DNA from: a plasmid
Strand: one strand, 5' to 3'
Sequence record: NZ_LC586267.2
Length of the DNA stretch: 64,000 bases
How positions within the stretch are numbered: position 1 is the first letter of the stretch; each line of letters opens with the position of its first letter. The position numbers are program-made. Shown here one piece after another: positions 44,001-56,000 of the stretch.

Positions 44001-47000
44001 TCCATGGCAACCACTGCGGCTAGCTCAGCAACCATCGGTAGGAAGCGGACGCCCCAATGGCCTATCCGCCACCAGGCCTTGCCTGCAAGGGGCTTTCGCG
44101 GCATATCCTCACTCGCTGCGCTCCCTGCGGTATTCCACGGTCCCCTTGCACGCGGCCTGGCTCTGGATAGTCCTGGCTTACCGCGTCCTACCGAAGGCTG
44201 CCGAGCAGATCCACCCAGCGGTGGCGCGCTTCCATTCCCAAAGAGCAGGGCGGCATCCGCTTCGCGGCTGCTGCTTTGAAAAGCGTTTGTTTCCCGCGCC
44301 CAAACGCTCGGCATTAAAGCAGATCTGCAAGAGCGCCTGCGGTCAAGCGCTCTGGACAGTTGATTCAGCCGATGAATACACGCACCAGGGGGCTGTCGAG
44401 AATGGAGACGTGCCGTGACAGCAAGCAGGCAAAAAGCCCCAGCGTGATCAGCGTATAGACGTAGCGGCGTTTTCTCTCCGGCGTCAGATCATCAGGGCTA
44501 TCCGTCAACGCGGGGAACTCGCCATTTATGCCCTTGGGCACCATGACCAGGAACGCGAATAACACATAGTCCCAGCCAGTGAATCCAGGGTAGGGGGAAT
44601 GTAGCGATGCCCACGCGGCGACGCCCACCCATACCGCCCAAGCGAGGGCGTAACGCGGCCTTTTGGTCATGCAAGCGATGTTTTCCATGTGCGTATTACT
44701 CCTTGTGTGGATGGTGCCTATTTCACGTAATAGCAGGGGTCTTGGGCACGGGCAGCTTTGGTTTTACCAGGTAGCTTGGCCATTGCCTCAGCCAGATCTC
44801 GCCAAGGAAACTGATGGTTTGGGGTTTGAAGGCTGCACCCGTATCCATGCACAAATATTCTGTCCGGCTCACTGGCTCGGGTTGCCATTCCGCATTCCTG
44901 GCAGGAAATGTCATCGCCAGAAAGTACCCATAGACGCGACCAGTCACGCAGTCTGTTGCTAAGGCTAATTCTCGGCATGGGCCTAACCTTTCCGCGTGGC
45001 CGAGCGACCATCTTTCCAGGTCATCCAGTAAAAAATGGCGATGCCCACAATGGCGCCGATAGGCCCAGCGCGCTCTATCCATGGGACTGAAACGGTAGGT
45101 AAGGCCAGGTTAAGGCCGATCACAATCATGGTGGCAACGAGCCACCCAAAGCCAGCTGCCACGGGTGTGAGCAAAATCCTTTTGACGATCAGATCCGTGT
45201 TCATAGCGACTCCTTTTGGGTTGTTAGTGTGCCGGTTCAACGTGCTTGCGTGTTGTCAGGTCCAGGCCAACGGCACGCATCACGGCCAGCAGGGTTTTCA
45301 AGGTCGGATTGCCCTTGTCCGAGAACGACCGGTAAAGGTGTTCGCGGGAAAGGCCAGATTCATTGGCAAGGGCGGTCATCCCTTTGGCGCGGGCCACGAC
45401 ACCCAGGCATTTTGCGATATAGGCCGCATCGCCTGTTTCGAATGCGTCCTCCATGAATACTGCGATGGACTCAGCATCGGTCAGCGCATCAGCGGGATCG
45501 TAGTCGTAAAATTGTTCTTTCATTCATCGTCACTCCACTGGCTGGCCAAGGACTTGGCGGTTTCGATATCCCGCGCTTGGCTGCTCTTGTCCCCACCACA
45601 CAGCAACAGGACCAGCTGGTTACCGCGCTGCTGGAAATACACGCGGTAGCCGGGGCCGTGGTGGATACGCAGTTCGCTGATCCCTTGGCCCACTGGTTGA
45701 ACGTCTCCAAGCAGACCATGCGCAACGCGGAAGACTCGCGCAGCGATGATGGCTTTGGCCTGCTTGTCTCGCAGCTTGCGTTCCCAGTTCCTGTACGTGG
45801 CGGTTTGTTTAATTGTCTTCATGGGATTGATTGTAGCTTATAAATCACGATTGAACAAGGTTCTCGCATGCGAGAAAGTCAATTTATGGTAAATATAGAT
45901 TTGACCTAGAGTTGACGCAAGCAGTTTCTTTTGGGATACTGAATCCGTCGAAGCAATCCCGCTTAGACAAGCCTGGAACCAGCGGCGGCAACCGCTCCGG
46001 GCACGTTGCGAAGGAGTCAGAACAATGTCTATTTTCAAAGAGTTGGCGCTACCTACTACGCTGGACGATCTGCTAACTGCCCGCGAGGAAGCGCTGCGCC
46101 TGATGGCAGATGCACGCCGCACACTTGAGATGGCCGAGGAAGTCCTAGCGCCTCATGGTCGCTATCTGATGCCTCACGCCGGGAAAATCAGGGAAGACCA
46201 GGACAGGGTGCGCCGCGAACTGGACACCTCCCTATGGCGCCGGGCGTTCGATATGACCGGCTTTAAACAGCTCATGGACGCGGAGGCCGTCGCGGAGTTT
46301 GAGAAAAGCCTTTGCCCATCCCCGCCTGAATTCACCGCATCGACAATTAGCGCGACGTTCATTGACCTGCGCATAAACGCCGAATCGATGTTCCAGCGTG
46401 GGGTTTTCAATGTGTTCCGGTATCTATCTGACGACTACCGCACAAACGCTAAAGAGCCGTTCCGCATCGGCCCGAAAGTCATCATGGAAGGCATGGTCGA
46501 ATCTTCGTTCACAAGTGGTCTTTGCATCCGGTACGGTTCGTGGGCAAAAGACAAGCTGAATGACCTTGATAGGGTATTTCAAACGCTCGATGGCAAGCCC
46601 TTCCAGCCTCACGCATTGACCTCAGCTATGGATGCTGCCTTTCAGGCTGGGGAAGTGTTCGAGAACGAGATCTACCGGGCTAAAGCCTTCAAGAAAGGCA
46701 CGCTCCATCTGGAGTTCCTGCGCCTGGATCTGCTGGATAAGGTGAACGAGCAGATAGCTGAATACTATGCCGGCAACGTCCTTCCAGACGCTCGGGCTGC
46801 GTAGCAAGTGGAATATACTATCAGTCAAATTAGATTTGACTGATAGTTGACTTATGCAAGCCCCTTTGCGATACTAACCAGGTCGAAGCAATACCGCTTC
46901 AACAGCCCGGAACCAGCGGCGGCAACCGCTCCGGGCACGTTGCGAAGGAGATTTCCATGAGCGCCTATATCGTCGACCGTTTCCATATTTCCGCCATCCT

Positions 47001-53000: not shown

Positions 53001-56000
53001 GGCGCCGGTCGCGTCGAATAGCGAGGCGATGGAGCGCAAGGTTGATGACCTGTACGGCGCAGCATGCGAACGCTTCCCTACCTATGACACGATGGTGCAT
53101 AACGCCTTCTGTGCGAGCATGGACGCAGAGTTCGGCGCCGATGACCAGGCCGAGGGAGTGGCAGAAATCTTTGCGTATGCCCGCGAGGCTTACGGCTATA
53201 TGTCTGCCAGTGAAAACGAAGCACAACGCCAGGAAGACGCCGACAACGGCCTTTGCTGGCACGGCCTGGACAGCATGACCTGCCCTTGCGGTTGCTTCGA
53301 AAACGACTAATCCAGACGGAAAAGGAGATTCATCATGGCCCGTGGCGTAAATAAAGTGATCCTGGTTGGGACTTGCGGACAGGACCCCGAAGTCCGTTAC
53401 CTGCCAAACGGCAACGCGGTAACTAACCTCAGCTTGGCCACCAGCGAGCAGTGGACCGACAAGCAAACCGGGCAGAAGGTCGAGCGTACCGAGTGGCACC
53501 GCGTCTCGCTGTTCGGCAAGGTGGCCGAGATCGCCGGCGAGTACCTGCGCAAAGGTTCCCAATGCTACATCGAAGGCAAGTTGCAAACCCGCGAGTGGGA
53601 GAAGGACGGCATCAAGCGTTACACCACCGAAATCATTGTCGACATTAACGGCACCATGCAGTTACTAGGCGGTCGCCCGCAGAACCAGCAGCAGGGCGGC
53701 GATCCGTACAACCAGGGCGGCGGCGACCAAGCACCCCGCCAGCAGGCGCCACGGCAGCAGCGCCCACAGCAGCGCCCGCCAGCTCAGCAGCAAGCGCCGC
53801 AACCTGCACCACAGCCAGCAGCCGACTTTGACAGCTTTGACGACGACATTCCGTTCATGGACCCGTACCGTTTCAGCTGGCAGCTTCAGTAAACACCCGC
53901 AAGACCAGGCCCGGCGCAATGTCGGGCTTTTTTCTGCGCGACAAACGGTCAAATTAGATTTGACCAATAGTTGACTTAGGTTCGAGCCTTTGCGATACTA
54001 ACCCTGTCGAAGCAATTCCGCCTCGACAGCCTGGAACCAGCGGCGGCAACCGCTCCAGGCAAATCGCGAAGGAGATTCAAAAATGCGTCTATCCAGCAAT
54101 TTCCGTAACCCTTGCATGGTCCGCAGCGACAGCCCACTGACCAATGACGATATCGCCCGCGTAGCGCCCTCGATCTTTGCCGAGGAAGCTCACGAAAGCC
54201 GCTCCGATCGTTACCGCTACATTCCCACCGTCGACGTACTGGAAGCACTGCGCAGCGAAGGGTTCATGCCGTTCATGGCCTGCCAAACCCGCGTGCGCAA
54301 CACCGACAAACGCGACCACACCAAGCACATGATCCGCCTGCGCCACGCCGATACCATCGTGGCCAAGGAAGCCAACGAAATCATCCTGCTGAACAGCCAC
54401 GACGGCACCAGCAGCTACCAGATGATGGGCGGTTGCTTCCGTTTCGTGTGCGCCAATGGCCTGGTGCTGGGCGATGCCGCGCTTGATCAAAAAGTGCGTC
54501 ACAGTGGGCGTCAGGATGTCATCGGGGAGGTGATCGAGGGCGCCTATGAAGTCCTGAATCACTTCCAGCTGATCGAAGAACAGCGCGAAACCATGAAAAG
54601 CATCCAAGTGGGCGGCGACCTGCAGCACGCCTTTGCCGAGGCTGCACTTGCCTACCGTTACGACCCGGCAGACGGCCCGGCTCCGGTGACCGCTAGCCAG
54701 CTTCTGGCACCACGCCGCCGCGAAGACGCCACCAATGACCTCTGGTCGACCTTCAACCGCGTACAGGAAAACACCATCAAGGGAGGGCTGCGAGGCCGCA
54801 ACAAACAAGGGCGCCGCACCAGCACCCGTGCCGTTTCCGGCATTGACCAGGACGTGAAATTGAATCGCGCCCTGTGGGTACTGGCCCAGCACCTGCGCCA
54901 AGCCGCCTAACAGCCCCAGGCCGGGCGCCCAGCGCGCCCGGTCTGCACCATGCAGGGAGATCGCAGCCATGCAAAAAGTTTTCTATGTACCCGGCCAAAC
55001 CGCAATCATCGACTATGCCCGCCAGATCGGCCCCAATGCTTGGGCCGCTCGCGCAACCTGGCTGATGCTGCCAGAGATCCAGGTAAGGCACCCCGGCGCT
55101 GTGCTTGGCGATGAAGTAGGCTTTCTGCAAGCGCAGGAAGCCGCCCACGGCACCCAGCCGGCGCGCATCACCGAAACCCGGTATGACTTCGCGCTTAGCC
55201 GCGCTCAGGTGCTCGACTACAACGCCGGCGAGGCCGGCGATTCGTTCATACTGCAAGCCCCCGAGGTTGGCGACCTGGTGCGCGTGTACGCCCGTTCAAG
55301 CGGTCGTTACTGGACGTTCCTAGCGCTGCCGACCATCACGCATTGCGAGATCTGGCAGCGGATTCACCAGCAGGGGGCCGCGGCTGATTGACTACCGACA
55401 CTAGGAGCTGATGAATGCAGCCGATGTACACCAAAGAAGAATGGAAGAAGGTTGCGCCCCTGTTTGCTTCCAAGCGCCTGGCCATCTCGACCGTCGAGGT
55501 GGCCAAGGCCGTTCTGGTCGATGGCCAGCGCATCACCGACGTAGCCGAGGCCAGGGGGATGACCAAGCAGACCGCGCACGCAGCGGTAAAGCGTGTGCGG
55601 AAAATCCTGGAAGAGCAGGGCGCCGGCGAGCTGGTCCCCGTCCTGGTGTGGCTGCCCCCGAGTTGGCCGAACAGGTGCGGGAAATGGCCAAGCCATTCCC
55701 CCAGCCTGCCGCCCAAAAATCGAAGTGAAGAATCACAAGGAGAGACGAAATGTCGTCTGATGAACTCATTTTCCAGGCTGACCGGATTCACTCAGTTTCC
55801 ATTCATAACGTCACCCTGGTTGCTAACCAGATCAATGAGGACGGGAAAACGGCTGACCTGGTTATCGAGTACCAGGGAAAGCAGCACACGTTGCGCGCCG
55901 CTCATTACGTGAATGAGAGTGACGTAGGCAAAGTGGGCTATGTACTGCCAGCGCATTTTGCGTCGTCGGCAGCAGGGAATGGCACCATGATTTTCCGGGC

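Follow-up and report, generated by a model that had tools for sequence, protein, structure and literature searches.

A repeated promoter-leader cassette with two hairpins heads the leading-region operons of an IncP-9 plasmid

A cassette repeated ahead of five operons

We analysed a 64,000-nt stretch of the plasmid record NZ_LC586267.2 (hereafter the window), in which a promoter-leader cassette recurs ahead of genes of the plasmid's leading region. The window is from an IncP-9 plasmid of Pseudomonas. The 8.4-kb region that holds the cassettes matches several 50-100-kb Pseudomonas plasmids at 99.9% identity and the IncP-9 TOL plasmid pWW0 at 87%. The closest relative carries, in order, rep, umuDC, toxin/antitoxin genes, the cassette region, transposons, a SprT-like gene, stbB/stbA, the origin of transfer (oriT), the trwA-like/T4CP/MOBF relaxase genes and the type IV secretion genes. 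This backbone arrangement is that of the IncW plasmid R388 and of IncN plasmids.

The open reading frames (ORFs) of the cassette region can be read as five operons on the plus strand (Table 1). Among the ORFs downstream of cassettes, Pfam and NCBIfam recognise only DUF4942, a C5-cytosine methyltransferase, a single-stranded DNA-binding protein (SSB) and DUF932. A first-pass annotation, made from the sequence, had placed several of these genes behind repeated units. The DUF932 gene does open the operon of such a unit; ssb and the methyltransferase gene belong to such operons as well, but as second genes and not directly behind the unit. Its "PAPS-reductase-like" gene could not be confirmed, as orf363 has no match in Pfam, NCBIfam or the PDB sequences.

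Five full units of ~140 bp (U1 to U5) and three short units (S1 to S3) lie between 45.9 and 54.1 kb; all eight copies are where they had been proposed, and on the plus strand only. Every full unit follows the same order: an inverted repeat, the -35 box, an extended -10, hairpin 1, hairpin 2, the Shine-Dalgarno sequence (SD) GCGAAGGAG and the ATG. The inverted repeat, of general form GTCAAAT-N3-ATTTGAC, is a palindrome of two arms around a 3-bp centre (GGTCAAAT-TAG-ATTTGACC). Although it had been described as overlapping the promoter, it ends 5-6 bp upstream of the -35 box TTGACN and there is no overlap. Its right arm nevertheless provides the first copy of a TTGAC-N6-TTGAC direct repeat, and the -35 box provides the second. 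The 17-bp promoter spacer ends in TTTGC and is followed by GATACT, giving an extended -10 of the form TGnGATACT. A promoter scan recovers the TTGACN-17-GATACT site of all five full units, with TG before the -10 in each, in agreement with the sigma-70 promoter first proposed.

Hairpin 1 (GTCGAAGC-AATNCC-GCTTCGAC) begins 6 nt past the -10 hexamer. The hairpin is present in all five units, but the 8-bp stem attributed to it is perfect only in U3, the other four units having one mismatch or wobble. Hairpin 2 (GCCYGGA-ACC-AGCGG-CGGCAA-CCGCT-CCRGGC, with the loop CGGCAA) follows after 1-2 nt. It corresponds to what had been read as a conserved AGCGGCGGCAACCGCTCCGGGCA box; the conservation holds, but the box is itself a two-tier hairpin (GCCYGGA / AGCGG - CGGCAA - CCGCU / UCCRGGC). 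In the window units ~5-10 nt separate hairpin 2 from GCGAAGGAG, and 6-8 nt separate GCGAAGGAG from the ATG. The short units lie between genes and, as had been noticed, keep only the last part of the cassette, namely hairpin 2, GCGAAGGAG and the ATG.

These motifs are not chance matches. The sequence GGCGGCAACCG occurs exactly eight times, always between 45984 and 54052, and allowing one mismatch gives 13 matches where 2.9 are expected (0 of 100 shuffles reach 13). With up to three mismatches the 15-mer TCAAATTAGATTTGA has seven matches (0.64 expected), the palindrome itself being found in five places, and GTCGAAGC-N6-GCTTCGAC has five (0.44 expected). Chance is excluded for each cassette motif.

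The units could also be remnants of a duplicated gene 5' end, and homology continuing into the coding regions had been named as the sign of such an origin. The similarity between units stops at the ATG. Furthermore, no pairwise similarity was found among 14 proteins of the region, eight encoded downstream of units and six further ones (all BLASTP E > 0.6). With similarity ending at the start codon and unrelated proteins behind it, we regard this origin as ruled out for all practical purposes.

Table 1. Cassette units, operons and other features located in the window.
Feature	Position	Strand	Parts	Remarks
Full unit U1	45888-46027	+	inverted repeat 45888-45906; -35 45912-45917; -10 45935-45940; hairpin 1 45947-45968; hairpin 2 45971-46002 (loop 45986-45991); GCGAAGGAG 46008-46016; ATG 46025	ahead of DUF4942 gene
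Full unit U2	46822-46959	+	inverted repeat 46822-46842; -35 46847-46852; -10 46870-46875; hairpin 1 46882-46903; hairpin 2 46905-46936 (loop 46920-46925); SD 46942-46950; ATG 46957	heads operon orf122, orf105, orf72, orf363
Short unit S1	47667-47725	+	hairpin 2 loop 47687-47692; GCGAAGGAG 47706-47714; ATG 47723	between two U2-operon genes; 43.7 bits; without promoter and hairpin 1
Short unit S2	47950-48007	+	hairpin 2 loop 47970-47975; SD 47991-47999; ATG 48005 (orf363)	between two genes; 48 bits; fold z -2.8
Full unit U3	49106-49244	+	inverted repeat 49106-49124; -35 49130-49135; -10 49153-49158; hairpin 1 49165-49186 (perfect 8-bp stem); hairpin 2 49188-49219 (loop 49203-49208); SD 49225-49233; ATG 49242	heads operon orf80, C5-cytosine methyltransferase, orf73, orf146, orf87; fold z -2.85
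Short unit S3	51244-51306	+	hairpin 2 loop 51264-51269, compensated inner stem GACGG/CCGUC; SD 51288-51296; ATG 51304	between two genes past methyltransferase; 46.5 bits
Full unit U4	52778-52917	+	inverted repeat 52778-52796; -35 52802-52807; -10 52825-52830; hairpin 1 52837-52858; hairpin 2 52860-52893 (loop 52876-52881); SD 52898-52906; ATG 52915	heads operon orf131-ssb
Full unit U5	53947-54085	+	inverted repeat 53947-53965; -35 53971-53976; -10 53994-53999; hairpin 1 54006-54027; hairpin 2 54029-54060 (loop 54044-54049); SD 54066-54074; ATG 54083	heads operon DUF932, orf140, ardK-like, orf339
U1 operon		+	DUF4942 gene 46025-46804	Pfam DUF4942
U2 operon		+	orf122, orf105, S1, orf72, S2, orf363	
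U3 operon		+	orf80, C5-cytosine methyltransferase, S3, orf73, orf146, orf87	
U4 operon		+	orf131, ssb	terminator-like site after ssb, 53907-53929
U5 operon		+	DUF932, orf140, ardK-like gene, orf339	
ardK-like repressor gene	55415-55728	+		KorA/TrfB family, ArdK clade; third gene of U5 operon
oriT core	14620-14680	-	inverted repeat CACCTCCC-GCCA-GGGAGGTG, then CGTGTTGTGTATTG	nic-like site ~14640
16-bp palindrome TTCTCGCATGCGAGAA	45861-45876			just upstream of U1
16-bp palindrome TTCTCGCACGCGAGAA	52750-52765			just upstream of U4
TTCTCGCRYGCGAGAA copies, 16 bp each	12690, 21875, 28046, 33021, 33069, 40580, 45861, 52750			
Long upstream repeat, 450-526 nt	52245-52770; 43873-44325; partial 56777-56902	+		first copy 526 bp, ahead of U4

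An ArdK-like repressor and its predicted operator

The product of the ardK-like gene finds its best structure matches in R388 ArdK (7bca and 7bbq, E 1e-10), compared with E 4e-3 for RP4 KorA, and we predict that it regulates all five units, including the one that heads its own operon. In R388 the site bound by ArdK is a TTGACA direct repeat of which the -35 box is part, and the promoters under its repression are PardC, Porf7, Pssb, Porf12 and Porf14 (PMC9723621). IncP-9 plasmids carry both KorA-like and ArdK-like proteins; for the ArdK-like ones direct repeats have been noted at the -35 box, those of pNAH20 being spaced by 6 bp (PMC9723621). The TTGAC-N6-TTGAC arrangement is found in all five full units of the window and in 25 related units, and its 6-bp spacer agrees with that reported for pNAH20. 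We note that the operator had already been put forward as putative for IncP-9.

The operator sequence tracks its regulator. Where ArdK is at least 80% identical the inverted repeat reads GTCAAAT..ATTTGAC, and where it is 55-62% identical, in related Pseudomonas plasmids, the repeat reads GTAMAAT..ATTTTAC. In these plasmids both arms have changed together while the -35 box is still TTGAC. Since both arms co-vary with ArdK divergence, this pattern supports the inverted repeat as part of the operator.

An alignment of 25 paralogous and orthologous units separates what is conserved from what is not. The inverted repeat, the -35 box, TTTGN-GATACT, GTCGAAGCAAT, hairpin 2 and TGCGAAGGAG are conserved, and the spacers and coding starts vary. 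The variable spacers of orthologous units resemble each other more across plasmids than those of paralogous units do within a single plasmid; for instance, the spacer of U5 is taggttcgagcctttgc and that of its pWW0 orthologue is ttggttcgaccctttgc. The spacer pattern points to selection on function and not to homogenisation by gene conversion.

This bears on a further explanation, in which the repeats persist as substrates of homologous recombination that shuffles leading-region modules, their conservation being a product of gene conversion. Recombination between CUP copies has been proposed to account for deletions and inversions in IncN2 plasmids (PMC5371602, PMC3490853), and the gene content between units does differ among plasmid families. 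However, copies whose orthologous spacers are closer than their paralogous ones have not been homogenised, and conservation is limited to blocks with a recognisable function. We therefore hold recombination to be a very improbable reason for the repeats.

Relation to the IncW, IncN3 and IncN plasmids

The proposed likeness to repeats of IncN and IncW leading regions is borne out as homology to their ArdK-controlled upstream elements, most completely for R388, where PardC, Pssb, Porf12 and Porf14 share the order of parts and the CGGCAA hairpin. As in the window, R388 encodes an ArdK-clade repressor inside the regulon; its promoters carry TTGAC(A) repeats, the -35 box among them, and a stem-loop just past the -10 hexamer; several operons on the same strand, including ssb, are transcribed towards oriT; and the CGGCAA hairpin stands ahead of the Shine-Dalgarno sequence and also between genes. 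Hairpin 2 is 94% identical between R388 and the window, and its seven R388 copies lie at ArdK-regulated promoters, at three intergenic sites and, in one case, upstream of kfrA.

The two systems differ in detail. The spacer of the direct repeat is 6 bp in the window and 4 bp in R388, and the window units have an extra upstream inverted arm that makes the palindrome, unlike R388. StbA sites (TTGCATCAT) surround the -10 box of the R388 promoters, whereas two of the five full units of the window have a TTCTCGCRYGCGAGAA palindrome instead. Ahead of the start codon the window has GCGAAGGAG and R388 has GCAGGAGTC, and identity between the two ArdK proteins is only 36%.

A BLAST search with one unit led to a closer match of the leader. 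The last 57 nt of the unit match enterobacterial plasmids of ~34 kb, which belong to the pN-Cit type of IncN3 and have four matching places each. Their units have the same order of parts, and a hairpin 2 that is identical to the common variant of IncP-9 over 33 of 33 nt, followed by TGCGAAGG. With hairpin 2 present in IncN3 and R388, the view that the exact sequence family is distinct does not hold. Each IncN3 plasmid has four full units and one or two short ones and, as in the window, these precede the DUF932 gene, ssb-ardK and a gene whose product starts MSAY. IncN3 differs from the window in its operator, in its -10 box (TATACT) and in the stem of hairpin 1 (CGGTTAGC/GCTGACCG), which is fully compensated. 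Its ArdK is 46% identical to that of the window.

The relation to the CUPs of the IncN plasmids (pKM101/R46 and IncN2) is looser. Here, too, repeated conserved DNA precedes leading-region operons under ArdK control, and the R46 CUP has the order seen in the window: operator, TTGACT-N17-GATAAT, a first hairpin, a second small hairpin and the Shine-Dalgarno sequence. The first hairpins have almost identical tops, with GCAATACCGC in R46 and GCAATCCCGC in the window. An alignment to the pKM101/R46 CUPs and to R388 had been suggested at first pass; R388 has hairpin 2 and the layout in common with the window, and the R46 CUPs share the order of parts, the top of hairpin 1 and a core of the long repeat ahead of U4, although BLAST finds no similarity of the R46 CUPs to the promoter-leader part of the window units. 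Similarly, a covariance-model search did not find the CGGCAA hairpin in R46 (IncN1) or p271A (IncN2). For the pKM101 CUPs a length of more than 400 bp is given (PMC6294495), in contrast to the ~140 bp of the window units, where conservation starts at the operator ~140 bp before the ATG. The dual control by ArdK and ArdR that is typical of CUPs is not matched either, since tblastn detects no homologue of ArdR (E 1e-2 or better), ArdA or ArdB in the window.

The two leader hairpins

Folding each unit separately, we find hairpin 1 in all full units of the IncP-9-like, IncN3 and R388 plasmids, starting 6-8 nt past the -10 hexamer in each family and with stem sequences that differ between families.

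For hairpin 2, we built a covariance model from 22 copies, which returned 62 strong matches of 30-57 bits in the window, pWW0, seven other Pseudomonas loci, IncN3 and R388, every one on the same strand as ardK. In their alignment 91% of the base-pair cells are paired, and eight of the 11 pairs have changed on both sides. None of 500 shuffles reaches the observed covariation, and sliding the partner columns lowers pairing to 30-49%. Among the 53 distinct sequences aligned from IncP-9-like, IncN3 and IncW plasmids, 51 have exactly the loop CGGCAA and the same two G-C pairs closing it; the other two are a truncated IncN3 copy, consisting of inner stem and loop only, and a chance match of 16 bits. 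Thus, every sequence that spans hairpin 2 keeps the loop and closing pairs, while the stems vary with compensation.

The truncated form occurs at two IncN3 loci (L003, 14995-15010; L004, 14522-14537), where the inner stem and loop are followed by TTTTT and GCGAAGGAG, and the inner hairpin can therefore occur without the outer stem. This copy resembles a weak terminator that has merged with the Shine-Dalgarno sequence.

The distribution of hairpin 2 is that of a plasmid element. A 34-nt query finds it in 260 plasmid records, 129 from Pseudomonas and the rest mostly from Enterobacterales, IncW included, and in 5,426 complete E. coli genomes all 212 matches are on plasmids. No annotated feature underlies any of the E. 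coli matches listed, and RefSeq does not annotate the hairpin. Rfam returned nothing relevant for positions 40-60 kb of the window at E up to 1, and no match at gathering score in the R388 or IncN3 locus. The hairpin is not described in the literature that we searched, which lay outside the founding CUP papers, the IncW-backbone papers and the 2002 pWW0 genome paper. A phage occurrence was considered and rejected: 80 viral contigs with the exact 14-nt core score at most 27 bits, as against 30-57 bits for the plasmid copies, and are chance matches.

Such an invariant loop raises the possibility that hairpin 2 is the binding site of a trans-acting factor, either a plasmid or host protein or a small RNA, which would co-regulate translation, processing or elongation across the entire establishment regulon in the manner of a translational operator or a nut/boxB-type site. 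It is the loop with its closing pairs that stays fixed as the stems compensate, and the common variant is fully identical between IncP-9 and IncN3 though the genes behind it encode proteins of only 61% (DUF932) and 29% identity. The hairpin is also found away from promoters, between genes. No partner was found, however: apart from the units' own antisense and weak chance hairpins, the window has no loop complementary to CGGCAA, the E. coli chromosomes among the 5,426 complete genomes hold no matching or complementary sequence, and no obvious gene is exclusive to the hairpin-bearing plasmids. R46 and p271A, in addition, have ArdK without hairpin 2. On balance we find a trans-acting factor possible but rather doubtful. 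It would add a post-transcriptional layer on top of ArdK, and so would complement repression by ArdK and not replace it. In its broadest form, which we put forward with similar reserve, the CGGCAA hairpin may be an uncharacterised cis-acting RNA motif common to establishment regulons of the IncW, IncN3 and IncP-9 type, where a dedicated factor would read it sequence-specifically and exert post-transcriptional control beside ArdK. Every leading-region gene, those within operons included, would then share this control, be it over translation, processing or antitermination.

Orientation with respect to oriT

The oriT core has a StbA homologue (14140-14319, minus strand) on one side and the trwA-like gene on the other. 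R388 shows the same placement, and the layout stbA - oriT - trwA/T4CP/MOBF relaxase agrees with that plasmid. The sequence after the inverted repeat, GGTGCGTGTTGTGTATTG, resembles R388 IR2 with its nic site GGTGCGTATTGTCT/ATAG. In R388 the stb side enters the recipient first. Because the nic-like site on the minus strand resembles that of R388, and by analogy with its order of entry, our analysis assigns the minus strand of the window as the transferred strand, which makes it the template for the cassette genes; these are transcribed towards oriT. The five plus-strand operons thus lie on the leading side of oriT, as had been proposed. The expectation that this region enters the recipient first holds as far as the leading side and the template strand are concerned, but in this plasmid the cassette region and the SprT and stb genes by oriT are more than 19 kb apart, with DNA between them that is apparently accessory and of the transposon type.

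At oriT itself, two tandem copies of a 61-bp sequence (GCACTAAAAACGCCCTTAACAAGAGCATCAATTTCGACCCTTAACAGGGTCAAAATCTCAAT; 14519-14640) adjoin the nic-like site. Each holds the inverted repeat GACCCTTAACAGGGTC, at a place where R388 has GACCCTAAAGAGGGTC, and they may be binding sites for an accessory relaxosome protein.

A likeness to single-stranded DNA (ssDNA) promoters had also been suggested, with a fold of the transferred strand as its test. In an Frpo, the -35 and -10 boxes are in duplex form within the stem of one long, imperfect hairpin of roughly 300 nt. The Frpo and ssi elements of IncF and IncI plasmids share with the window units their place on the leading side of oriT, a transferred strand that is the template, and early expression of ssb-type genes. 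When we folded the transferred (minus) strand of the five full units as ssDNA, the operator palindrome, hairpin 1 and hairpin 2 each formed a short hairpin, with stems of only 8-12 bp, and both hexamers were unpaired in all five units. An Frpo-like single-strand promoter is therefore ruled out.

The hairpins could still act in the transferred ssDNA in other ways, as priming or primosome-loading signals or as sites for single-strand-binding proteins, before the complementary strand is made in the recipient. The transferred strand, being the template here, does fold all three hairpins, with z of -3 to -5.8 in four of the five units, and in several hairpin 1 variants an A-C mismatch of the sense strand is a G-T wobble on the transferred one. 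Yet a DNA signal needs no fixed position, whereas hairpin 1 is fixed at the predicted 5' end of the transcript and hairpin 2 always lies 5 to 25 nt upstream of the Shine-Dalgarno sequence, always on the strand of the gene. The unpaired hexamers and a layout unlike that of Frpo count against this role too, as does one pair of hairpin 2 that runs through the series C-G, U-G and U-A, the wobble being on the sense strand in 10 sequences. We consider a function in the transferred ssDNA improbable.

A model for the full units

We consider it likely that each full unit joins a sigma-70 promoter under the plasmid's own ArdK-family repressor to a conserved 5' untranslated leader. ArdK bound to the inverted repeat and the -35 direct repeat would cover the -35 box, because the right arm of the inverted repeat pairs with this box in the direct repeat, and would thereby block RNA polymerase. 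With the repressor gene in the fifth operon, the circuit would form one negative-feedback loop over five operons. Upon conjugation the plasmid would arrive in the recipient as ssDNA, with the repressor absent; once the complementary strand is made, all five promoters would fire, and as ArdK accumulates they would be shut down. Such a course would be zygotic induction, for which transcriptional overshoot is another name. Brief firing after transfer under the control of the repressor is what we regard as most likely, a prediction that rests on homology; in R388, ardC and ssb mRNA climb sharply straight after conjugation (PMC3937220).

For the leader, we infer a role in mRNA stability and translation. 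Hairpin 1 would be at the 5' end of the predicted transcript, since it starts 6-8 nt past the -10 hexamer, and may serve there as a 5'-terminal stem-loop that shields the mRNA from 5'-end-dependent decay. Stem-loops at the very 5' end are known to slow this decay. Hairpin 2 with GCGAAGGAG would constitute a self-contained module for translation start and insulation, used for first and internal genes alike; the short units present it alone ahead of three internal genes.

Several observations weigh against this model of ArdK repression and leader function. The ardK-like gene is frameshifted in the window and loses its frame after residue 81, owing to one C missing from a C6 run at ~55655, which is probably a sequencing error. 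The best-conserved element of the units is an inverted repeat, with its half-sites in divergent orientation, whereas the R388 operator is a direct repeat; the binding mode of ArdK here is uncertain, because the divergent orientation was outside the R388 work. Simple roles in stability or insulation leave the invariant 6-nt loop and the GG/CC closing pairs of hairpin 2 unexplained. Finally, the folding energy of hairpin 2 differs by only 0.9 kcal/mol between sense and antisense, and tests of which strand forms the hairpins, by wobble-pair asymmetry and by folding energy, gave mixed signals.

Other repeats and sequence quality

Two further repeats lie close to the units. The 16-bp palindrome TTCTCGCRYGCGAGAA has eight copies across the plasmid (0.09 expected), ahead of the SprT-like gene, the transfer genes, the partition genes (two copies), umuDC, U1 and U4. 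Those at U1 and U4 are ~12 bp upstream of the ArdK operator repeat. Read as 5-nt arms with a 6-bp spacer, the palindrome fits the description of the pWW0 KorA operator (PMC9723621). Its distribution suggests that it is the operator of another repressor, one that acts across the plasmid and may be the IncP-9 KorA (gene at 34899-35249); this repressor would stand beside ArdK much as StbA acts alongside ArdK in R388.

The second is a long upstream repeat, whose two long copies are 99% identical and lie ahead of U4 and ahead of the toxin-antitoxin genes, with part of a further copy after orf339. The repeat is placed behind the ends of operons, and only U4 directly follows the 526-bp copy. The repeat consists of a 125-nt GC-rich hairpin cluster with cUNCGg loops and then a long hairpin of ~190 nt. 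Three hairpins of the cluster have cUNCGg loops on the plus strand, and the loops of relatives vary among UUCG, UACG, UCCG and UGCG, a signature of RNA structure. Folded as transferred-strand DNA, the repeat has z = -4.7; it has no Rfam match. A core of ~60 nt (CTCACGCCTCCGGCCTTCGGCCTGCGCGCTCCGCTTG) is common to the R46 CUP regions, IncN3 and other IncN-like loci, with 78-92% identity to R46. The long repeat is probably the distal part of long CUPs, and it may alternatively be a terminator, an insulator or a priming signal.

In the U3 operon, a GC-rich hairpin (GGCGCCCC-GCCC-GGGGCGCC with a missing G restored; 51222-51241) lies between the methyltransferase stop codon and S3, and similar extra hairpins precede the matching unit in pWW0 and related loci. 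The C-terminal half of the 563-aa methyltransferase is encoded with four in-frame repeats of ~37 nt (50476-50884), 114-138 nt apart, each encoding an (F)SVADPR-like motif.

Compared with its closest relative, NZ_CP081967, over 17 kb, the window shows seven indels (positions given are 43588, 47165, 51236, 55655, 56792 and 56795), which put the ardK-like gene and the opening gene of the U2 operon out of frame. Because every one of the seven is a base missing from a G/C homopolymer run in the window, they are most likely homopolymer sequencing errors and not biology.

Implications for plasmid establishment

The repeated cassette is real and functionally coherent, and it belongs to the known ArdK/CUP establishment regulons. 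IncP-9 plasmids in Pseudomonas bear degradation and antibiotic-resistance genes, and control of their leading region is here tied to the ArdK system of IncW and IncN plasmids, in which the experimental work has been done. Testable predictions follow, namely that five promoters answer to one repressor and that expression shows a burst once the plasmid has been transferred. The parts worth following are the uncharacterised hairpin with its invariant loop and the long upstream repeat. The promoters mark ~14 genes, most of them without known function, as candidates for establishment or anti-defence functions, and hairpin 2 may be usable as a portable expression element or offer a possible control point for plasmid establishment.

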